Shown here: positions 10,549-48,837 of the stretch, in pieces
Layout of the letters: the number at the start of each line of letters is the position of its first letter
Position numbering within the stretch: position 1 is the stretch's first letter
Sequence record: MN850564.1
Direction: 5' to 3' (one strand)
DNA: 64,000 nucleotides
Source: Escherichia phage humlepung
Program-made: the position numbers and the translations under genes
The notes under the pieces: model-generated
Seen by the model: only the letters and a program-made list of their open reading frames with translations
Databases searched by the model: none
What the model was told of the DNA's origin: nothing

Positions 10549-10625
10549 CTCTGTTTAGCTCAGCTTGGTAGAGCGTTCCGTTTGGGGCGGTAAGGCCGGA
10601 GGTTCAAGTCCTCCAACAGAGACCA
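10549..10625 (+). tRNA. tRNA-Pro (anticodon TGG)
   Basis: 7-bp acceptor ctctgtt/aacagag, D-arm gctc/gagc, T-loop TTCAAGT, encoded CCA. Confidence 0.75.
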
Positions 10626-10632
10626 AATTAAT

Positions 10633-10710
10633 GTTCCAGTAGACAAAATGGTAAAGTCACCACTCTTTCAAAGTGGATATTTGAGGGTTCAAATCCCTTC
10701 TGGAACGCCA
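10633..10710 (+). tRNA. tRNA-Glu (anticodon TTC)
   Basis: Acceptor gttccag/ctggaac, anticodon loop cTTTCaa, T-loop TTCAAAT, CCA. Confidence 0.7.
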
Positions 10711-10715
10711 GTTTT

Positions 10716-10791
10716 GACAGAAGACCAATTACAGCAAACTTAATCTTATTCATCTGAAGGTAAATCGGACAAAGAAGAGATTTGGTCTGGT
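10716..10791 (+). repeat. Structured repeat element copy a (5' GACAGAAGACCA ... 3' TGGTCTGGTC)
   Basis: Member of four-copy family with conserved CAGAAGACC...TACAGCAA...GGTCTGG and covarying flanks. Confidence 0.5.
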
Positions 10792-10801
10792 CATTAAGAA
10801 T

Positions 10802-10878
10802 TGCGGGTATAGAGAAAGGGCGTCTCACATGTCTCATTAGCATGGTATCGGCAGGTTCGACTCCTGCACCCGCCTCCA
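10802..10878 (+). tRNA. tRNA with CAT anticodon (Met or Ile2)
   Basis: Anticodon stem catgt/gcatg, loop cTCATta, T-loop TTCGACT, CCA; 1:72 mismatch. Confidence 0.6.
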
Positions 10879-10882
10879 ATTT

Positions 10883-10946
10883 TGCAGAAGACCGTATTCA
10901 GCAACAAAATACTTTTTGCGGATAAAAGAAAAAACACGGTCTGGCA
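10883..10946 (+). repeat. Structured repeat element copy b (5' TGCAGAAGACCGT ... 3' ACGGTCTGGCA)
   Basis: Same family; flank covariation tGC/GCa. Confidence 0.5.
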
Positions 10947-10955
10947 ATGTATTAA

Positions 10956-11029
10956 GGTTAGGAAGCACATAAGGTATGTGCGGTCGCCTGTTAAGCGAAT
11001 GGCACAGGGTTCGAATCCCTGACTAACCG
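10956..11029 (+). tRNA. tRNA-Asn (anticodon GTT)
   Basis: Anticodon loop ctGTTaa, T-arm caggg-TTCGAAT-ccctg, acceptor 6/7 paired; no encoded CCA. Confidence 0.65.
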
Positions 11030-11040
11030 CAAAATTAAAT

Positions 11041-11128
11041 GTGTCGTTATCCCGTAGATGGTAGCGGTGGGGACTGTAAATCCCTTGTCATTGAGACTCG
11101 GTAGGTTCGACTCCTACACGGCACACCA
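11041..11128 (+). tRNA. tRNA-Tyr (anticodon GTA), type II with long variable arm
   Basis: 85 nt, acceptor gtgtcgt/acggcac, loop ctGTAaa, T-loop TTCGACT, CCA. Confidence 0.7.
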
Positions 11129-11133
11129 ATAAA

Positions 11134-11210
11134 GGCTATGTAGTTTAACTGGAGAAAATACTCCCCTGTCACGGGAGATGATGTGAGTTCAAGTCTCATC
11201 GTAGCCGCCA
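11134..11210 (+). tRNA. tRNA-Asp (anticodon GTC)
   Basis: Acceptor ggctatg/cgtagcc, loop ctGTCac, T-loop TTCAAGT, CCA. Confidence 0.7.
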
Positions 11211-11237
11211 ATTTTGAGAGGGCTATTTAGCCCCTCC

Positions 11238-11272
11238 CTTAAAGAGTTCTTACGAGTATTCTTTAAGGGAGC
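11238..11272 (+). repeat. Hairpin CCCTTAAAG-(agTTCTTACGAGtatt)-CTTTAAGGG
   Basis: 9-bp perfect stem; loop motif TTCTTACGAG recurs at 14277-14286. Confidence 0.5.
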
Positions 11273-11348
11273 AGAAGACCAAATACAGCAAGAATGTATG
11301 AAATTTCAAGCCAATTTAATTTTGAAAATTTAAAACTTGGTCTGGCTC
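11269..11348 (+). repeat. Structured repeat element copy c (5' GAGCAGAAGACCAA ... 3' TTGGTCTGGCTC)
   Basis: Same family; flank covariation GAGC/GCTC. Confidence 0.5.
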
Positions 11349-11354
11349 AACAAA

Positions 11355-11493
11355 TTTACAGAAGGCCGTTTACAGCAAAACTTAAACAATCTATTTCTCC
11401 GGTAAAGAAAAGGCGAAGGTTCGATTCCTTCACTCGGCAGATGTCGAGTTGGTGTAATGGTAGCACTTAAGATGATAAACAACGGTCTGGTAA
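11355..11493 (+). ncRNA. Candidate structured ncRNA (element copy d): terminal stem TTACAGAAGGCCGTT/AACGGTCTGGTAA enclosing tRNA-like T-arm and D-arm hairpins
   Basis: Internal gaagg-TTCGATT-ccttc hairpin with T-loop consensus, acceptor-like hairpin, D-arm-like gtgtAATGGTAgcac; no complete tRNA fold. Confidence 0.3.
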
Positions 11494-11639
11494 TTACCTT
11501 TGTAGATAAGTTATTAAGCTTACTTGTGAGTATGCGACCACAAAGGGTGAATGGGTAAATTCTAGATTTAAACCCAAAAAGGCACATCGCTACAGACCTT
11601 AAGCAAGTCTGGGTAGCTTATCTACAAAGATAATTTAAT

Positions 11640-11715
11640 GGAAGTGTAGCAGAATGGTGATGCGGCAGACTTTTAATCTGACAGGCGATGGGTTCGAATC
11701 CCTCCACTTCTACCA
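11640..11715 (+). tRNA. tRNA-Lys (anticodon TTT)
   Basis: Acceptor ggaagtg/cacttct, loop cTTTTaa, T-loop TTCGAAT, CCA. Confidence 0.65.
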
Positions 11716-11719
11716 ATAT

Positions 11720-11796
11720 GGTTCAGTCGCAGATAAGGTAATGCAAGGGTCTCATAAGCCCTATGAATGTGGGTTCGATTCCCATCTGAACCTCCA
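11720..11796 (+). tRNA. tRNA with CAT anticodon (Met or Ile2), second copy
   Basis: Perfect acceptor ggttcag/ctgaacc, loop cTCATaa, T-arm gtggg-TTCGATT-cccat, CCA. Confidence 0.65.
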
Positions 11797-11797
11797 A

Positions 11798-11873
11798 GCT
11801 GGTATAGTTAAGAAGGTTATAACACTCCCCTGATAAGGGAACATCGGTGGTTCGATTCCACCTACCAGTACCA
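11798..11873 (+). tRNA. tRNA-Ile (anticodon GAT)
   Basis: Loop ctGATaa, T-arm ggtgg-TTCGATT-ccacc, CCA. Confidence 0.65.
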
Positions 11874-11888
11874 ATTTCAATAAAGTTG

Positions 11889-11917
11889 TTGACATTGAGA
11901 TGTGACTACTTTATAGT
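11889..11917 (+). promoter_or_regulatory. Sigma70-like promoter TTGACA-17-TATAGT inside the tRNA region
   Basis: Exact -35, 17-nt spacer, TATAGT -10. Confidence 0.55.
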
Positions 11918-12121
11918 AACCTTAGTTTTCGTTGCGTAGCGTCTATTTTGCAAATTTAAAATAAATGCAAACGACAATGTTTTTCTGGCAGTAGCTTGAT
12001 AGGCTAAACACCAGTGAGGTCTTCCAATCCCTCATCAAAGAATTTGGCGTACTCGCCCACGGTATGATTAATAAGGTGGGCATCTTTAAGGGCTTTCTAA
12101 GAGAGTCTTTAAAGATAATTA

Positions 12122-12203
12122 CGGGGCGTATCTCAGCGGTCTTCTAAACCGCCGTTAACCGAGTAAGTGGAGTATGCGGGTTCGAGTCCTGCCGCCTCGA
12201 CCA
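12122..12203 (+). tRNA. Atypical tRNA-like gene, anticodon stem-loop gcggt-cTTCTaa-accgc (TCT, Arg-like), no recognisable D-arm, 23-nt extra segment
   Basis: 7-bp acceptor cggggcg/cgcctcg, T-arm gcggg-TTCGAGT-cctgc, CCA; only 7 nt between acceptor and anticodon stem. Confidence 0.4.
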
Positions 12204-12346
12204 ATTTAGTTAGCAGATTACTTAGACGACCTTAGCGGGTCTTCCTGTAGGGAGGTGGTCTGTATCTCATGTTTTCCAGAACATGTAAATAATCTGAGAA
12301 GGGGCTTTACAGTGTTGAGATAATACGGTAAGCTTCGAATTATAGT

Positions 12347-12429
12347 ATGGGACGATATTAAGACTCTAAGGCATGAGCAACGGCTTCCAACACCGTTTCA
12401 AAGGGGTTCAACTCCTCCGTCCCATGCCA
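12347..12429 (+). tRNA. Atypical tRNA-like gene, anticodon loop compatible with CCA (Trp) closed by a C-A pair, or 9-nt loop
   Basis: Perfect acceptor atgggac/gtcccat plus CCA, T-loop TTCAACT; D-region irregular. Confidence 0.35.
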
Positions 12430-12442
12430 AAGTCTTATTAGG

Positions 12443-12530
12443 GGTAGGTAGCGGCTAATGGTAGCCAAACTGTCTTGAAAACAGTTGCCACTGTAGAGAT
12501 ACGGTGAGGGTTCGACTCCTTTACTTACCG
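12443..12530 (+). tRNA. tRNA-Ser (anticodon TGA), type II
   Basis: 88 nt, stem actgt/acagt with loop cTTGAaa, long variable arm, T-loop TTCGACT. Confidence 0.65.
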
Positions 12531-12787
12531 CCTAATAAGATTTAAAGCCAAGCTTCATTCGGATGTTGCTTTGGTATACCGCGTGTATTGTTGTACGCAC
12601 TGATAAAGCACCTAGTAGGTGTCACGGAGAAGAGATAATATCAAGCTCTCCAAAGGTTCTAGTCACCGGATTAAACAAGACTATGCAAAGACCTTTTTAG
12701 GTCTTTTTAGAGGGCTTCTAAGGTTATTACAGCTTGTTGTGGAACCTTGTTGCTTAGGTTCTTAGAAGTTCTCTAAAAAGATTTAAT

Positions 12788-12865
12788 GGGAGATTGACGG
12801 TAATTGGTAAACCTACCATCCTTAGAAGTTGGTGTTTGAGGGTTCGAATCCCTTGTCTCCTACCA
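12788..12865 (+). tRNA. tRNA with TAG anticodon (Leu-type anticodon but short, type-I length)
   Basis: Acceptor gggagat/gtctcct with G-U pairs, loop ctTAGaa, T-arm gaggg-TTCGAAT-ccctt, CCA. Confidence 0.5.
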
Positions 12866-12872
12866 AATTAAT

Positions 12873-12948
12873 GCAGGTGTAGCAAAATGGTTATGCGGCT
12901 GACTCTTAATCAGTAAGACGATGGGTTCAATTCCCTCCACCTGTACCA
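12873..12948 (+). tRNA. tRNA-Lys (anticodon CTT)
   Basis: Stem gctga/tcagt, loop ctCTTaa, T-loop TTCAATT, CCA. Confidence 0.55.
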
Positions 12949-12954
12949 GACATT

Positions 12955-13030
12955 GGGGTCATAGTTTATATGGTTAAAATTCGAGTTTTGCAAACTTGGG
13001 AACTGAGTTCAATTCTCAGTGACTCCACCA
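12955..13030 (+). tRNA. tRNA-Ala (anticodon TGC)
   Basis: G3:U70 wobble pair in acceptor (Ala identity element), loop ttTGCaa, T-arm ctgag-TTCAATT-ctcag, CCA. Confidence 0.75.
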
Positions 13031-13036
13031 ATTAGT

Positions 13037-13111
13037 GCATCCATAGTTTAAACGGGAAAATTACAGTCTTCCAAACTGAGGTTGAGGGTTCGATTCCCTC
13101 TGGATGCTCCA
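13037..13111 (+). tRNA. tRNA-Gly (anticodon TCC)
   Basis: Perfect acceptor gcatcca/tggatgc, loop ctTCCaa, T-arm gaggg-TTCGATT-ccctc, CCA. Confidence 0.7.
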
Positions 13112-13117
13112 AACAAT

Positions 13118-13194
13118 GCTGCTTTCGTATAATTGGCTATTACACATCCCTTGTAAGGATGGAAATGCAGGTTCGAGTCCTGTGAGCAGCACCA
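13118..13194 (+). tRNA. tRNA-Thr (anticodon TGT)
   Basis: Perfect anticodon stem catcc/ggatg, loop ctTGTaa, T-loop TTCGAGT, CCA. Confidence 0.75.
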
Positions 13195-13199
13195 ATTCA

Positions 13200-13283
13200 G
13201 AGGTCAAGTGAAAGACCGCTGGTGTCAACTGAAGACCGTAACAAATTCCACGGAGTTGAGTTAGCGGCACAACTTCAGACCTC
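13200..13283 (+). repeat. Stem element AGAGGTC...GACCTCT enclosing a GAAGACCGTAAC motif
   Basis: 7-bp terminal inverted repeat; internal CTGAAGACCGTAACAAA resembles the 5' arm of elements a-d. Confidence 0.4.
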
Positions 13284-13289
13284 TTTCAC

Positions 13290-13364
13290 ACTCGCTTAGT
13301 TTATATGGTAAAACACCACCCTTACAAGATGAAGAAAAAGGTTCAAGTCCTTTAGTGAGTACCA
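13290..13364 (+). tRNA. tRNA-Val (anticodon TAC), tentative isotype
   Basis: Acceptor actcgct/agtgagt, loop cTTACaa, perfect T-arm aaagg-TTCAAGT-ccttt, CCA; anticodon stem has mismatches. Confidence 0.55.
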
Positions 13365-13365
13365 T

Positions 13366-13443
13366 GTTCCAGTATCCCAATTGGCAGAGGATGCAAGCTC
13401 AAACCTTGTATTAGTGACGGTTCGAATCCGTCTTGGAACACCA
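13366..13443 (+). tRNA. tRNA with CAA anticodon (Leu-type anticodon, type-I length)
   Basis: Acceptor gttccag/ttggaac, stem gcaag/cttgt, loop ctCAAac, T-arm gacgg-TTCGAAT-ccgtc, CCA. Confidence 0.55.
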
Positions 13444-13462
13444 ATTTAAAGAGGCTATTTAG

Positions 13463-14020
13463 ATGAGATATTTGAAGTATGCTTCATGGATTTTCCTAGC
13501 TTTACTAGAGCCATTTGCAGCAACCCTAGCAGTCATCTTAGCACCTTTCGTAGTTCCATTCTACAGTGAGAAGAAAGGACACTTACCTTTCGGGTTCAGA
13601 TGGATGGAGACATATGACAACCCAATTGATGGTGATGAAGGTCACGTTAAAAGATGGGCTAATATTAGATGGATTGGTAAACTAGGTGTCTACATGCAAA
13701 GAGTTGGATGGCTCTGGAGAAACAAAGCTTATAACTTCTCTTACCATGTATTAGGAAGAGATGTAAAAGATGTTACTAAGTGGAAAGGTAATATCAACGT
13801 AAGTTCTAACCCTGAAGATAATCAGACTGGTTATCTCCTAATGTGGAACAGGAATGCTTGGGGATTATTCGCTTTTATCCCATCAATTAAAATCTTTGGT
13901 AAACAATTTTACTGGAGAATTTATATTGGATGGAAACTAAAAAGTGTTGTCCCAGAAGAAAGAGCATTCTCAAGGGAAAGAGTTATGTTGGCATTCTTTA
14001 TTCATCCACTGAGAAAGTAA
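13463..14020 (+). CDS. hypothetical membrane protein (185 aa, Trp-rich) encoded inside the tRNA array
   Basis: ATG with AAAGAGG RBS; N-terminal hydrophobic segment. Confidence 0.55.
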   Translation: MRYLKYASWIFLALLEPFAATLAVILAPFVVPFYSEKKGHLPFGFRWMETYDNPIDGDEGHVKRWANIRWIGKLGVYMQRVGWLWRNKAYNFSYHVLGRDVKDVTKWKGNINVSSNPEDNQTGYLLMWNRNAWGLFAFIPSIKIFGKQFYWRIYIGWKLKSVVPEERAFSRERVMLAFFIHPLRK

Positions 14021-14028
14021 AGATTTAA

Positions 14029-14104
14029 AGGGGATTAGTTTACAAGGTTAAAACCTCGGTCTTTGAAATCGAAGAAGTTGGTTCAATTCCAACATCCCCC
14101 GCCA
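14029..14104 (+). tRNA. tRNA-Gln (anticodon TTG)
   Basis: Loop ctTTGaa, perfect T-arm gttgg-TTCAATT-ccaac, CCA; 1:72 mismatch. Confidence 0.6.
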
Positions 14105-14106
14105 AT

Positions 14107-14185
14107 GCTCCATTACTCCAATTGGCAGAGAGGCCAGACTTAAAATCTGTGTTATGTATCGGTTCGAATCCGATATGGAGTACCA
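14107..14185 (+). tRNA. tRNA with TAA anticodon (Leu-type anticodon, type-I length)
   Basis: Loop cTTAAaa, T-arm atcgg-TTCGAAT-ccgat, CCA; D-arm resembles the CAA tRNA. Confidence 0.5.
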
Positions 14186-14190
14186 AATTT

Positions 14191-14266
14191 AGCGGTATAG
14201 CATAACTGGCAATGCAGCAGTCTCTGAAGCTGTCTTATTAAGGTTCAAATCCTTATGCCGCTGCCA
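14191..14266 (+). tRNA. tRNA-Gln (anticodon CTG), tentative
   Basis: Acceptor agcggta/tgccgct, D-stem gcat/atgc, loop ctCTGaa, T-arm taagg-TTCAAAT-cctta, CCA. Confidence 0.55.
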
Positions 14267-14267
14267 C

Positions 14268-14294
14268 TTCTAAGGATTCTTACGAGAGTCCTTA
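14268..14294 (+). repeat. Hairpin with loop motif TTCTTACGAG (second copy)
   Basis: aaggaTTCTTACGAGagtcctt; motif shared with 11250-11259. Confidence 0.45.
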
Positions 14295-14297
14295 AAT

Positions 14298-14373
14298 GTG
14301 GCCTTATCATAAATGGTAATGACCCATGCTGTGAACATGGTCTATACGGGTTCAAATCCCGTAGGTCACCCCA
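14298..14373 (+). tRNA. tRNA-His (anticodon GTG)
   Basis: Perfect anticodon stem ccatg/catgg, loop ctGTGaa, T-arm acggg-TTCAAAT-cccgt, CCA. Confidence 0.7.
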
Positions 14374-14379
14374 ATTTAT

Positions 14380-14455
14380 AGTCCAAGTAGCTTATATGGT
14401 TAAAGCGCGTGTCTGAAAAACATGAGAAGAGGGTTCAAATCCCACTGGACTACCA
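14380..14455 (+). tRNA. tRNA-Phe (anticodon GAA)
   Basis: D-stem gctt/aagc, loop ctGAAaa, T-loop TTCAAAT, CCA; acceptor register uncertain by 1 nt. Confidence 0.6.
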
Positions 14456-14471
14456 ATTTCAAAGGTGCTTA

Positions 14472-15206
14472 ATGAAAGAGATGACAGAACAAGGTAAGGA
14501 GATTTTTAATCTCTTAAAAACCGGTAAAGGGTTTTCTAACCCACTTATTACTGGTGCAGCAGTTCTCGGTGGAACCGTAGCTGCCTCTACATCACTTGTA
14601 AGCTCTATTAGCTCTGTAACAGACCCTACAATGAAGGAGAAGCTTGTTGCTGCTGGACTTACAACAGTCCTTCTAAACAGCTTTACAACAATCCTGACAA
14701 GCACTACAGCAACCACTAAGACCCTAACAGACTACGGTCAAAAGTCTATTGATGAGTTTTCATCACGTATGCAGGTAGCAAAGGGATATTCCAATGTTAT
14801 GGGTGCAGCAGGAGAACAAGTTGGTTGTACACCATTCAGTGGTATTATGGGTGTTGCTACAGAGTATGGTCAAAAAGCTATTGACATGATTAACAGTACA
14901 CTAGATAGTGTTAATGGTGTGTTAAGTGACTTACAAGACGCTATTGATGAGGGTCTTGATACTGTTTCTGATTTAGCTAATCAGGCTGTTAGTAAGATTA
15001 ATGAAGGTATTTCAAAGATTACAGCTTATGCAGATGAAGTTGTGCAGATGATTGAAGAAGAAGCTGCCCTTATTGCAGAGTACCTTAAAACGAATATCAA
15101 TGGGTTCTTAGCAGGTATCTTACCAGACTGGTTTGATGATGCTTGTAAAACTGGTGTAATTGATGCTATTGCAACACCAGAAATGAAGAACGCATTACAG
15201 AAATAA
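14472..15206 (+). CDS. hypothetical protein (244 aa, Ala/Thr/Ser-rich)
   Basis: ATG at 14472 with AAAGG RBS; the track start at 14409 would overlap tRNA-Phe. Confidence 0.5.
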   Translation: MKEMTEQGKEIFNLLKTGKGFSNPLITGAAVLGGTVAASTSLVSSISSVTDPTMKEKLVAAGLTTVLLNSFTTILTSTTATTKTLTDYGQKSIDEFSSRMQVAKGYSNVMGAAGEQVGCTPFSGIMGVATEYGQKAIDMINSTLDSVNGVLSDLQDAIDEGLDTVSDLANQAVSKINEGISKITAYADEVVQMIEEEAALIAEYLKTNINGFLAGILPDWFDDACKTGVIDAIATPEMKNALQK

Positions 15207-15207
15207 T

Positions 15208-15300
15208 GGAAGATTAACCCTAAAAGGTAAGGGAGCAGTTTGCTAAACTGCCAGTAGCTGAGAAATCGGTGTACCAGTTCAAGTCTGGTATCTTCCTCCA
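15208..15300 (+). tRNA. tRNA-Ser (anticodon GCT), type II
   Basis: Perfect acceptor ggaagat/atcttcc, stem gcagt/actgc, loop ttGCTaa, long variable arm, CCA. Confidence 0.7.
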
Positions 15301-15304
15301 ATTT

Positions 15305-15380
15305 GAATCCGTGACAGAAATGGCTATGTGCCTGTCTGCAAAACAGGTTTATAAGGGTTCGAGTCCCTTCGGATTCTCCA
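15305..15380 (+). tRNA. tRNA-Cys (anticodon GCA)
   Basis: Perfect acceptor gaatccg/cggattc, stem cctgt/acagg, loop ctGCAaa, T-arm aaggg-TTCGAGT-ccctt, CCA. Confidence 0.75.
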
Positions 15381-44850: not shown

Positions 44851-45120
44851 TCACTCAATAACCGTAGTGTGTGATTGACCATTTTTGCCATAGCTATAAG
44901 ATGTTGTTGTTTGGGAGTTTGGACATCTGACAACAACAATATCTCTGCTTATAGCATCACCATGTAACTTGTATACTTTGCAATCTTGCATCTCTGGTGG
45001 GAGACTGTAAGAAGCATTTTTATCTTCATAAGAAGGGTTGCAGCCAGATAGAAAAACAACACCAAGCGCAATTACTGCTTTCCACATAATACTTCCCCAG
45101 AGACTGTACATTTTCTTCAT
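44851..45120 (-). CDS. small lipoprotein (lipobox LSGC)
   Basis: N-terminal hydrophobic signal ending in LSG-C. Confidence 0.5.
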   Translation of the reverse strand: MKKMYSLWGSIMWKAVIALGVVFLSGCNPSYEDKNASYSLPPEMQDCKVYKLHGDAISRDIVVVRCPNSQTTTSYSYGKNGQSHTTVIE

Positions 45121-45350
45121 AGCAACTCCAGAATATCAATACGTTCGCCCTTAAGGACTCCAGTACGGTCTCTTGCAATCTTGCCGTCAACAATAAGGAT
45201 ATGTGCAGCCCTTAAAGAGTCACTATTAAAAGCTTTTACGAACTTACTAGGCATCACTACAATGGGCATCTCCTGAATCAACTCTGGAGTATAGCAATTG
45301 TCGTGAAGTTGCTGAATAACGTCTGCAAGTGTCATTTTTGATGTCTCCAA
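45117..45350 (-). CDS. hypothetical protein (77 aa)
   Basis: ORF. Confidence 0.4.
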   Translation of the reverse strand: METSKMTLADVIQQLHDNCYTPELIQEMPIVVMPSKFVKAFNSDSLRAAHILIVDGKIARDRTGVLKGERIDILELL

Positions 45351-45541
45351 TACTCAATGTCAATAAGTTCTTGTGCAATGCTTTTAAGGTTACCTTTCAA
45401 GAAAACCTTCTCAGAACCTGAAAGAGATGAATTGTCAATTAACCTGTTCATTCTCTCAAACAACTTCTGCTTACGATTTTTGATAGTCTCCTTTGAAGCA
45501 CCTTTCATCATTGCTGCATGGGTTCTTCCACGATGGCTCAT
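45332..45541 (-). CDS. hypothetical basic protein (69 aa)
   Basis: ORF. Confidence 0.35.
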   Translation of the reverse strand: MSHRGRTHAAMMKGASKETIKNRKQKLFERMNRLIDNSSLSGSEKVFLKGNLKSIAQELIDIEYWRHQK

Positions 45542-45592
45542 AATCCCTCCTATACAAGATGTAGTATAAGGTACTCTTCCCTGAGCACCTTG

Positions 45593-46096
45593 TCAACTTA
45601 GTTTTGCAAACTCTCCGTGGAGTTTAATAGCAGCTTCACAGTAAGCTTTATGGGCTTCTTCTGGTGTGTCAAATAAACCAAGTGATGTCCTTTTACCTCT
45701 GCATGTTATAGCTGCCCTCCACTTATTGCAGTCTTTAAAGTAATGTACACCCTTGTAACCTGATTTGTTAGTCGTCTGCTTTACCCTATTTTGAGCATTT
45801 CCGTATTTATCAGTCTCCCTAAGATTAGAAATGTGATTATTACTTCTGTTACCATCAATGTGGTCTATCATCTTAGTGGGTTTGTAACCATGTTCGAACC
45901 ACCAAACGAGGTGATGAATTTTTATTACGACATCTTTGAATTTAAGTACTTTGTAACCGTAAGCATCAGCACCTCCTGCAATCTGCCCAGCTTTAGCTTG
46001 TCTATTCCTGTCATACTTGTTGTAGAAGACCCCTTTGTCGGGGTCGTAAATAAAATTATCCTTGTAGTCTTGAAGTGTTAGTGTACGGCGTACCAT
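45593..46096 (-). CDS. HNH homing endonuclease with AP2-type DNA-binding domain
   Basis: HNH core HHLVWWFEHGY...IDHIDGNRSNNHISNLR; C-terminal YKGV...LGLFDTPEEAHKAY AP2-like segment. Confidence 0.75.
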   Translation of the reverse strand: MVRRTLTLQDYKDNFIYDPDKGVFYNKYDRNRQAKAGQIAGGADAYGYKVLKFKDVVIKIHHLVWWFEHGYKPTKMIDHIDGNRSNNHISNLRETDKYGNAQNRVKQTTNKSGYKGVHYFKDCNKWRAAITCRGKRTSLGLFDTPEEAHKAYCEAAIKLHGEFAKLS

Positions 46097-48777
46097 GTCT
46101 TACCTACCTTACCAGTGCCTGTAACAAGCGTCTTACTCTTTAATCCAAGATTTTTTGATGCTTGACCATACATTCTATCAATAATCTCCTTAACATCAGG
46201 TACATCTTTGGTTGGAACCTCTAAAGAGACCTCATCGTGGTAACTACAGACCCACCTAGCACCAATAGCTGGCTTCCTACCATTTAGAACTGTAAGCTTG
46301 CGCTCTGTTAACTCCCTGTTAGCCAAGTTAATACCCTCATTCTGCACCTGCGCCTCACTGCCCATAAGTGTGTAATTCAATAACTTATGTGGAGATTTAC
46401 ACCATAACCACGCCCCAGCAACCTTGATATAGCCACCTTTTGCAATTGCAGAAGTCTTTCCGAAAACCTCTTCAAGTGCTTTCTTAGTTGCTTTGAAGTC
46501 TTCCTCTAGTCTATCAAGCAGCTTTTTAATCTTAGGTAGACGCACAAAGTAAGTTTGTTTAGTCAATGCACCCTCTTCCGTAGATGATGCCTTGATAGTT
46601 TTTGCAAACTTCTCGTCTCCGGCTCCAAATAACAGGGCGTAGATGCCATTTTTGCTCTTCTTACGACCTTTTGTAATCTCGTGGAGAAGTTCCTCATCCT
46701 GTGTCTCCCTGCAACGAACAATATCCTCTTCTTTGTTAAGACCAAAGTAAATACTGTTCAGTGTATGCGCATCAGTCCCTGTGTAGACTTCATAGAGGTC
46801 ATTTTCAGCATCATAACGCAGATACTTGTCAGTTTCTGGGTTAAGATACTTGTCAAGATGTTTACAGTAGTATCTACCATCATCTTGCTTAGTGAACTCT
46901 ACTGACTCTTTACCCTCAGTTACCGCTTTAGTGAAGTCTTCATCACCCATAAAGTTACAAAGAAGAACTAGCTGGGCTGAGTTTTGGTCTACGGAGATGA
47001 TATCTGTACCATCTTCACAAGTCCACACCTCCCTCATAGGTGCTCCATAGACAGCAGCACCAGACGGTACGTTTACAATACCATATTGTGTCATACGTCC
47101 AGTTGAAGTGCCAAACACCATTGCACCAGCACTAAGGCGACCATCAGGACGAATCTGGTTCAACCAACCTTTTTCATCATCCTTTGAGTTCTCAATAGTT
47201 CTGCGTCGGTGCATCAAAGTATAGTACTTAGCAATCTTCTGTCCAAGCTCACCTTCAATCGTATCATAAGATGATTCAGTAAGTTTTGGTGAAGTACGGA
47301 TTAAGCAAGGTTCAAGCAAATCTGTGTATTTCTTCACAGACCAGTTATGCTCGATGTACTGTACACCTTCATGTTCAACATAACTCAAACCACACCGCTC
47401 AACCATTTCCTGCCACTTAGGATGCTTTGTAATCATCTTTTTATTGTCTTTGAAACGACAAACTTTGATAGGGCGACCATCTGAGTCTTTCTTGTAATTC
47501 CAGTCATCTGGAATCCAACCAACTGATTTCAAGTAGTCTTTAACAACTGCTACCTGAGTCATACGAGAAACTTCAAACTCAATTGGTGTATATGGTGCAT
47601 CAATCAAACCTGTGTAGCGACTTGACTCAAGTTCAAAGTGATTGACAACGTGACTGTTATAGTACTTCACAGTCTTGACTGTTTTTACTGGTTTCCAGTC
47701 TTTGCATTTTTTGCCAATCTTTGCATTCAACTCGTTGCAGATTGCACGAGCATCCTTCATCGCTACAAAACCCTCTTTGTACTCTTCACCAGTTACAGAG
47801 TTGGTTGGTGTATAGCAATTTCTCTTTTCAATGTTAAAAATCTTTGTAGTTGGCTTACCAAATGGTTTGATTTCATAAGTCTGCATCTCACCATTACGTA
47901 CCTGCTGACGATACTTTGTCTTAGGGTACTTGGTAATTCTCTTCAGTCCATCTGCATGACCAAATGTTTCAACATACTCATTCCAAGCTTTTGCAAACTC
48001 TTCTCCAGTGACTTTACCTTTGGTCTTAATAGTTGGAGGAAGATGTGGTTCAACCTCTGAAGCAAGTTCATTAGTCAATTTGTCAAGCTCCTTTACATGG
48101 AACTCCATAAGCTCCTTATCAGCTTTCCAACCATTGATAGCTTGCTGGCTCATCCAGAAAGATGTCTCTTTAGCTCGCATGTAAGTCTCATAAGTGTCTA
48201 TACCACACTTCTTAAGCTTGAGATACTCGTTATCAAGTGCCCGTTTAGTTTTGGCATTAATACGGATATCTTCTACAACACGAGTGAAGATTTCTGCATT
48301 CCACACACCCCAATGTTCAATCTCTGGTTTACGGACACCAACACGAGCACCCCATGCAGCCAAACCATGAGCACCTTTATAACCCTTTGGGGTTGGCCTA
48401 TCCATCCACTGAACACGAGACTGGATAAGAGAGTCCTGAAAGAAATTACTCCACGGTTTACACTTTGGATTATCAAAGTTCCATAAATCAGGTGCAATGT
48501 GATTGAAAACCCACCAGTCATAACCGAGACCATTATGGATGCAAAGACGTTTTGCCTTTAACGCAAATTCAACACCTTCACGTAAACCACCTTTGATGTA
48601 CTTAGTGTACTTGTGACCGAGGATAGGCTCATCTGTAAAGACCCATACAGGTGGCTCTTCATCGTCAGATTTATAGTCTGCAAAGGCCATTACGTGAACT
48701 TTAGTGAACTCAAGGAGTAAACCATCAGTTTCTGTATCACCAACCAAATGTAAGTTTTTAAAATCTACGTTTTCCAT
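46078..48777 (-). CDS. DNA polymerase, family A, with 3'-5' exonuclease domain
   Basis: Exo motif GDTETDGL, Pol A motif C-like HDEVSLEV; start at MENVDFKN with AGGGAG RBS (track start 48807). Confidence 0.85.
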   Translation of the reverse strand: MENVDFKNLHLVGDTETDGLLLEFTKVHVMAFADYKSDDEEPPVWVFTDEPILGHKYTKYIKGGLREGVEFALKAKRLCIHNGLGYDWWVFNHIAPDLWNFDNPKCKPWSNFFQDSLIQSRVQWMDRPTPKGYKGAHGLAAWGARVGVRKPEIEHWGVWNAEIFTRVVEDIRINAKTKRALDNEYLKLKKCGIDTYETYMRAKETSFWMSQQAINGWKADKELMEFHVKELDKLTNELASEVEPHLPPTIKTKGKVTGEEFAKAWNEYVETFGHADGLKRITKYPKTKYRQQVRNGEMQTYEIKPFGKPTTKIFNIEKRNCYTPTNSVTGEEYKEGFVAMKDARAICNELNAKIGKKCKDWKPVKTVKTVKYYNSHVVNHFELESSRYTGLIDAPYTPIEFEVSRMTQVAVVKDYLKSVGWIPDDWNYKKDSDGRPIKVCRFKDNKKMITKHPKWQEMVERCGLSYVEHEGVQYIEHNWSVKKYTDLLEPCLIRTSPKLTESSYDTIEGELGQKIAKYYTLMHRRRTIENSKDDEKGWLNQIRPDGRLSAGAMVFGTSTGRMTQYGIVNVPSGAAVYGAPMREVWTCEDGTDIISVDQNSAQLVLLCNFMGDEDFTKAVTEGKESVEFTKQDDGRYYCKHLDKYLNPETDKYLRYDAENDLYEVYTGTDAHTLNSIYFGLNKEEDIVRCRETQDEELLHEITKGRKKSKNGIYALLFGAGDEKFAKTIKASSTEEGALTKQTYFVRLPKIKKLLDRLEEDFKATKKALEEVFGKTSAIAKGGYIKVAGAWLWCKSPHKLLNYTLMGSEAQVQNEGINLANRELTERKLTVLNGRKPAIGARWVCSYHDEVSLEVPTKDVPDVKEIIDRMYGQASKNLGLKSKTLVTGTGKVGKTWYAVH

Positions 48778-48837
48778 TTTTACTCCCTCTAAAATCATTA
48801 ACCTCATACATTACTGCAAAAAATTATAAAAAGCAAG

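Follow-up and report, generated by a model that had tools for sequence, protein, structure and literature searches.

The 167-aa open reading frame (ORF) that follows the DNA polymerase gene of Escherichia phage humlepung is likely to be a free-standing HNH-AP2 homing endonuclease gene, situated in the spacer that separates the polymerase gene from the following transcription unit. The ORF lies on the minus strand of a 64,000-nt stretch of the phage genome (MN850564.1), which was analyzed at its full length and is referred to as the window. The original prediction, made from the letters of the window, had already read the gene as a free-standing homing endonuclease, and this reading is supported by the optional presence of the gene among related phages, by a precise empty site, by the mosaic borders of the locus and by intact catalytic residues. 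The features on which the argument draws are collected in Table 1.

Table 1. Features of the polymerase-endonuclease locus, with positions in the window, in the order in which they are read on the minus strand.
Feature	Position	Strand	Remarks
Family A DNA polymerase gene, uninterrupted in the window	46078..48807	minus	ORF of 909 aa
Unoccupied group I intron site in polymerase motif B (..NGIYA/LLFGAG.., slash at the site)	46615..46652	minus	Intron-less allele
Variable cassette: polymerase gene, final ≈500 nt; endonuclease gene, initial ≈420 nt	45670..46590	minus	Boundaries approximate
Shine-Dalgarno-like AAGGTAGG inside the polymerase coding sequence	46103..46110	minus	6–10 nt upstream of the endonuclease ATG
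Endonuclease start, overlapping the last polymerase codons and TAA	46078..46096	minus	19 nt; polymerase TAA at 46078–46080
HNH-AP2 endonuclease ORF, allele A	45593..46096	minus	167 aa; ATG start; equals Felix O1 ORF95/NP_944955
GC-rich hairpin GACCCC-N6-GGGGTC	46028..46045	minus	Perfect; 51 nt into the ORF
HNH (beta-beta-alpha-metal) nuclease core, aa 56–109	45770..45931	minus	Pfam HNH_3 and alignment with I-HmuI (1U3E)
Codons of the catalytic motif	D78, 45863–45865; H79, 45860–45862; N91, 45824–45826; N100, 45797–45799	minus	
C-terminal AP2 DNA-binding domain, aa 112–161	45614..45763	minus	Pfam AP2 and matches to plant AP2/ERF structures
Last 22 endonuclease codons (EEAHKAYCEAAIKLHGEFAKLS)	45596..45661	minus	Near-identical nucleotides in alleles A, B, C and D
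Conserved intergenic element TTGACAAGGTGCTCAGGGAAGAGTACCTTATAC, right border of the insertion site	45564..45596	minus	Single-copy in the 64-kb window

Identity of the gene and previous annotation

The window belongs to a Felixounavirus, and the region is 96–98% identical to Felix O1 and to the E. coli felixounaviruses pinkbiff, momo and skuden. The endonuclease is 99.4% identical in amino-acid sequence to ORF95 of Felix O1 (NP_944955), which is annotated as 'HNH endonuclease', is located at the corresponding place and overlaps the polymerase gene by the same 19 nt. There is no material difference between the two, and they are effectively one gene. This form of the endonuclease, referred to as allele A, is found with at least 95% amino-acid identity in 17 GenBank records, the next best match having 48%. 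The endonuclease is already annotated in Felix O1 and in 16 other GenBank records, and the finding is thus known at the annotation level.

The genome paper on Felix O1 counts six copies of HNH homing endonucleases and no introns (PMC3185647), and 'Bacteriophage Felix 01' is among the sources of HNH-AP2 endonucleases in Magnani et al. (2004), as these are cited in PMC4237383. A search of the literature for a polymerase intron in Felixounavirus or for the activity of this endonuclease returned nothing specific, the nearest reports being of 'two introns' listed as ncRNAs in phage SPJ41 and of HNH regions that vary between genomes. Both the biochemistry of the endonuclease and the population-level picture of the locus are undescribed in the literature searched. 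Staphylococcus phage SA1 (GU169904) and Campylobacter phages A132 and A126 (MG065664 and MG065668) contain Felixounavirus polymerase, endonuclease or intron sequence with 96–98% identity; these records are probably mixed or mis-assigned assemblies.

Domains and catalytic residues

Analysis with Pfam showed that residues 60–98 of the ORF match the HNH_3 profile (PF13392; E 9.7e-12, 44.8 bits against a curated cut-off of 24.8) and that residues 112–161 match the AP2 profile (PF00847; E 1.9e-10, 41.3 bits against a curated cut-off of 33.3). Both matches exceed the curated thresholds and hence are not due to chance. The ORF is also matched by PHROG 99 'HNH endonuclease' with an E of 7e-63. A sequence search of the PDB aligned residues 56–109 with the HNH homing endonuclease I-HmuI (1U3E, E 3.6e-4) and residues 111–162 with plant AP2/ERF domains. 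In the I-HmuI alignment the endonuclease residues D78, H79, N83, N91 and N100 stand opposite D74, H75, N79, N87 and N96, which we take to be the metal ligands and the general base. A single-sequence AlphaFold2 model had a pLDDT of 38.7, which is too poor for a fold search.

Judged by these defining features of its sequence, the ORF belongs with the HNH_3 and HNH-AP2 endonucleases. The HNH core and the AP2-type DNA-binding domain that had been predicted are both found above the profile cut-offs, and the residues of the catalytic motif (D78, H79, N91 and N100) are intact when aligned with I-HmuI. The endonuclease is a separate ORF with its own ATG, in a frame different from that of the polymerase gene, and no paralogues of it were found in the 64-kb window.

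Occupancy of the site among related phages

A set of 59 IMG/VR loci containing the polymerase C-terminus was collected, and the Felixounavirus loci among them were classified. With Felix O1, bumzen, tootiki and the window, which were classified alongside, the sample comes to 32 loci. Allele A is present in six of these and the site is empty in 12. The other 14 loci hold different HNH-AP2 alleles at the same spot, 37–48% identical to A. They comprise allele B and its variants (seven loci; 43–48% amino-acid identity to A, with the variants 73–84% identical to B), allele C (five loci; 37–40% identical to A), allele D (one locus; about 40%) and allele E (one locus; about 40%). Pfam was run on one representative each of B, C and D, while the variants B' and B'' as well as E were assigned solely from their tblastn similarity to A and B. 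All three representatives scored above the HNH_3 cut-off; those of B and C were also above the AP2 cut-off, and that of D reached 28.2 bits against the required 33.3.

The empty site consists of the polymerase stop, TTAGTA and then TTGACAAGGTGCTCATGGAAGAGTACCTTATAC...AGGAGG...ATG, the ATG being that of the next gene. The polymerase gene and the next gene are only 61 nt apart in VpaE1 as recorded in GenBank. All alleles are placed exactly between the polymerase stop and the conserved TTGACA, and the TGA stop of allele A overlaps this TTGACA. The gene is thus not universal among related phages. A division into six loci with A, 14 with other alleles and 12 without any, combined with an exact site, is what one would expect of a free-standing homing endonuclease gene.

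The border element starts with the TTGACA, contains an imperfect inverted repeat (AAGGTGCTC/GAGTACCTT) and lies ahead of the next gene in all relatives, whether or not they have an endonuclease. That it could be a repeated phage promoter was rejected, as it is single-copy in the 64-kb window; the spacing within the element is unfit for a standard sigma-70 promoter. The gene directly downstream (69 aa, 45332–45541, minus strand, PHROG 5180) is optional too: five empty-site loci (L009, L013, L014, L019 and L024) lack it, and in three other empty-site loci a different small gene is inserted before it.

Mosaic structure of the polymerase 3' end

The window was compared with allele-B phages (bumzen and L027) in sliding windows. 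The polymerase gene has 93–100% identity to these phages from 48807 to about 46590, the stretch from 46560 to 45680 has only 40–80%, and from 45679 onward the identity is again 88–100%. In the alignment with bumzen, mismatches begin at 46547. The final 22 endonuclease codons, which four of the alleles share almost unchanged, are probably the right-hand homology arm for allele replacement.

The polymerase end linked to allele A has 67–72% nucleotide identity to every other polymerase end in the sample, and is about as distant from them as the polymerase ends of other genera. When the 160 C-terminal residues of the polymerase were used as a tblastn query, exactly 17 GenBank records had at least 98.8% identity, and the next best match had 79%. 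These 17 records are the same as those with allele A at 95% amino-acid identity or more, and the linkage between the endonuclease and its polymerase end is complete. In a neighbor-joining (NJ) tree of 1400 nt of upstream polymerase sequence, the A and B phages form one tight clade in which the A phage L006 stands beside a B phage, although this non-monophyly of A depends on the short branches of the tree. The 3' end of the polymerase gene gives a different tree, with A and B on separate long branches. The endonuclease alleles are also shuffled with respect to the polymerase ends, as in L034, where a C endonuclease is joined to a B-type polymerase end, and in L008/L011.

These comparisons show the locus to be a hot spot of recombination, in agreement with the published generalization that nuclease genes mark exchange boundaries between phages, with AP2-associated HNH genes often being found beside DNA polymerase genes (PMC10448857). 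The original prediction had also proposed an insertion next to a conserved target gene. The endonuclease gene does lie beside the polymerase gene, but the adjacent ≈500 nt are the least conserved part of the latter and travel with the endonuclease.

A second variable patch is found just downstream (44851–45170, minus strand). It includes an 89-aa ORF (44851–45120, PHROG 902) that has a signal peptide with an LSGC lipobox and encodes a putative lipoprotein. In L027 this ORF is replaced by a segment with 30–46% identity, and the upstream end of the ORF, around 45083–45140, shows alignment indels in bumzen, L021 and L017.

Overlap with the polymerase gene and expression

The ORF upstream of the endonuclease gene matches the Pfam profile DNA_pol_A through profile position 380/381, so the polymerase is complete and ends at its natural C-terminus. 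The 909-aa ORF starts three codons (48799–48807) before the annotated start of the Felix O1 polymerase (906 aa), and the real start is probably the second ATG. The endonuclease gene follows directly downstream and shares 19 nt with the polymerase gene, the TAA stop included, both as predicted. Its ATG is made by the codons ACA-TGG (Thr-Trp), which are specific to the polymerase end linked to allele A. A consensus scan of the gene's strand near the start found neither a sigma-70-like promoter nor an intrinsic terminator for the endonuclease gene. With no promoter found there, the endonuclease is probably expressed from the polymerase transcript by translational coupling.

The GC-rich hairpin in the 5' part of the ORF has a dG of −12.8 kcal/mol and a z-score of −4.3. 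All five endonuclease alleles in the comparison (A, B, C, D and E, each represented by one locus) keep it, with different flanking codons. The hairpin codons CCC and GGG account for 3.8% and 7.6% of the Pro and Gly codons, respectively, in the long ORFs of the window, and the joint expectation for the four rare codons of the hairpin is about 1.3e-4. A hairpin scan showed that the motif also marks further HNH copies elsewhere in related genomes.

The mobE gene of T4 is a promoterless free-standing HNH gene in which a hairpin 27 nt into the ORF works as a weak terminator (PMC2790892). By analogy, we propose that the hairpin of allele A may be an attenuator or a weak internal terminator. The mobE hairpin has a U-tract, however, whereas the hairpin of the window, 51 nt from the ATG, is poor in this respect (UUCUACAAC) and coincides with a conserved DPxxGV peptide motif. 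The terminator role is for these reasons only an analogy.

A group I intron in the polymerase gene of relatives

Many relatives of the phage carry a group I intron in the polymerase gene. It sits between the equivalents of 46635 and 46634, 555 nt before the polymerase stop. In tootiki, which has allele A, the polymerase is annotated as two CDSs, and the gap between them is a group I intron (L003, 4383–4660) that matches Rfam RF00028 with 61.3 bits against a gathering score of 50 (E 1.2e-14). The intron is found in about 96 phage records with at least 90% identity and in 88 with at least 95%. Some of the introns have an extra ≈530 nt encoding a protein with an Endonuclease_7 domain; in VpaE1 (L013/L092) this ORF is split into ORFs of 101 and 78 aa. 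The intron-bearing alleles have synonymous changes around the splice sites, TATGCG/T ... TATTGTTCGGGGCTGG as against TACGCCC/TGTTATTTGGAGCCGG (slash at the splice site). An Rfam search of the window for RNA families found no intron, only tRNAs. There are 23 tRNA genes at the Rfam gathering threshold (10549–15377, plus strand), as expected for a Felix O1-like genome.

That the gene of the window is an intron-encoded homing endonuclease was rejected, as the intron of the relatives lies well upstream and, where it has an ORF, this is of the Endonuclease_7 type, and as the window is intron-less. A strict dependence of the endonuclease on the polymerase intron was rejected too: the intron co-occurs with alleles A, B and C as well as with empty sites, and is absent from the window. 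It is present in three allele-A phages (tootiki, fBSPA4 and fKMPT1), while 14 of the 17 allele-A records, the window included, are without it.

The endonuclease might still act as a helper of the intron, cutting near motif B and thereby mobilizing the ORF-less intron in trans, which would add to the homing explanation. The wide distribution of the intron, extending to allele-A phages, is in line with such a role, as is the left edge of the mosaic (46547), which is only ≈90 nt from the intron site at 46634/46635. Among the records listed, ORF-less introns co-occur with downstream HNH-AP2 genes and introns with the Endonuclease_7 ORF occur mostly with empty sites, but this trend is confounded by relatedness, and the mixed occurrence described above speaks against an obligatory association. 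MobE of T4 is known to mobilize the nrdB intron (PMC2790892). The intron-less site of the window is, however, identical to that of the allele-B phages, so an enzyme cutting there would cut its own genome. We therefore regard a helper role as unlikely.

Selection on the endonuclease

The allele-A copies are all full length. Their pairwise pN/pS values are 0.04–0.17, and 33 of the 40 variable sites among them are third codon positions. The low pN/pS, together with the intact catalytic residues, indicates that the protein is being maintained, and on these substitution patterns the endonuclease is under purifying selection.

This bears on the question of whether the gene could be an immobile passenger, acquired once with a foreign polymerase 3' end by ordinary recombination and now inherited vertically in the Felix O1 lineage with no homing. 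The carriers of allele A are indeed all close relatives (92.8–98.2% identical over a 2.1-kb query), the absolute linkage of allele A with its polymerase end is what descent predicts, and the 32-locus sample includes no empty-site phage with an A/B-type backbone. Yet a useless selfish gene should decay, and the copies are intact, with a pN/pS of about 0.05 and the catalytic residues kept. The site is also dynamic, with at least five alleles besides empty sites, and alleles have been shuffled against polymerase ends (L034 and L008/L011). A passenger of this kind thus seems improbable.

Domestication, either as a nuclease that excludes co-infecting relatives by cutting their polymerase gene or as a protein that regulates the TTGACA element through its AP2 domain, would agree with the strong purifying selection, with a gene that ends exactly on a conserved promoter-like element and with the observation that homing-endonuclease-like nucleases can be co-opted (Barth et al., PMC10448857), but it is highly improbable, since 12 of the 32 loci have no gene at all and others have alleles of 37–48% identity, so that no conserved phage function depends on the gene, and since, in mechanism, excluding competitors and homing are one activity. 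A terminase-associated HNH protein (a packaging factor like gp74 of HK97) was rejected, as the neighbors are the DNA polymerase gene and small ORFs and the gene is optional.

A model for the spread of allele A

As a free-standing homing endonuclease gene, which is the reading we prefer, allele A may spread in the following way. The promoterless gene would be read from the polymerase mRNA, with its ATG 19 nt before the polymerase stop and behind AAGGTAGG, and the conserved GC hairpin 51 nt into the ORF would limit its expression. During co-infection with a relative that does not have allele A, the AP2 domain and the N-terminal region would bind a long asymmetric site. This target is most probably in or next to the 3' ≈500 nt of the recipient polymerase gene, or at the junction of the polymerase stop and TTGACA, a location that is taken from the mosaic boundaries alone. 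The single HNH site would then nick or cut the recipient DNA.

The HNH enzyme I-HmuI is a nickase. The monomeric HNH enzyme MobE is a nickase as well, and shows co-conversion (PMC2790892); going by these two characterized relatives, the endonuclease of the window would be expected to nick its target. Repair would copy the donor between two homology arms, the left one being the polymerase gene upstream of about 46590 and the right one consisting of the TTGACA element and the ≈70 nt at the 3' end of the endonuclease gene, and allele A would be transferred together with its own polymerase 3' end (co-conversion). Immunity of the donor would come from its polymerase 3' end, in which about 30% of the positions are different.

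Common descent could account in part for the presence of the cassette in the 17 allele-A records. The divergence of ≈30% in the polymerase end is far above the few immunity polymorphisms typical of homing endonuclease genes in T4, and as a sequence distance it implies an import from an unsampled lineage, not a simple co-conversion between close relatives.

The model might be extended further, although we put this forward as a doubtful possibility. The locus could be a multi-allelic battleground where at least five HNH-AP2 alleles replace each other, each moving as a cassette with the ≈500 nt of the polymerase gene and using as its landing pad the ≈70 nt that the alleles share at the end of the endonuclease gene. 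Such a contest would drive the divergence of the polymerase C-terminus, the endonucleases would mobilize the ORF-less intron in trans in the manner of MobE or I-TevIII, and the hairpin would set the level of expression.

Relation to known systems

Members of the HNH-AP2 family resemble the gene of the window in having an N-terminal HNH and a C-terminal AP2 domain, in being free-standing and in being found often beside DNA polymerase genes. I-HmuI of Bacillus phage SPO1 shares with the window protein the HNH_3-type core, with a residue-for-residue D-H...N...N motif, and in SPO1, as in the window, it is a DNA polymerase gene that is involved. I-HmuI is encoded inside a group I intron and has a helix-turn-helix C-terminal domain, unlike the free-standing gene of the window with its AP2 domain, and outside the core the similarity between the two proteins is undetectable by sequence. 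Bonocora and Shub are said to have described in 2009 a free-standing HNH gene beside the DNA polymerase intron of the T7-like phages phiI and W31.

The T4 gene mobE (nrdA/nrdB, PMC2790892) is likewise a free-standing HNH gene beside an essential DNA-metabolism gene and has no promoter of its own. Further likenesses are the hairpin in the 5' part of the ORF, the co-conversion of flanks and the group I intron that some phages have in the neighboring gene. MobE-class enzymes differ in having a zinc-finger DNA-binding region (PMC10448857) where the window protein has AP2, and the activity of MobE is demonstrated, whereas that of the window protein is predicted. The IPA-HNH domains of ICP1 (PMC10448857) have no match to Pfam HNH_3, in contrast to the window protein.

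F-CphI and the psbA intron of cyanophage S-PM2 (PMC6083498) are another parallel, as a free-standing endonuclease gene there adjoins a gene with an ORF-less group I intron, which in our case is present in some relatives. The window differs from these collaborative homing pairs in having no intron, and cutting at the intron site finds no support here.

Implications

The annotation of a split 'DNA polymerase' in many relatives in reality reflects a group I intron. As recombination mosaics, the spacer and the final ≈500 nt of the polymerase gene are unsuitable for Felixounavirus phylogeny or typing. As a textbook selfish element, the endonuclease gene would have little significance of its own beyond annotation. 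The locus, with its several alleles, its empty sites and an intron nearby, is on the other hand a convenient natural system for the competition between endonuclease alleles; its carriers grow on E. coli K-12, and the phage is used for Salmonella diagnostics and biocontrol.
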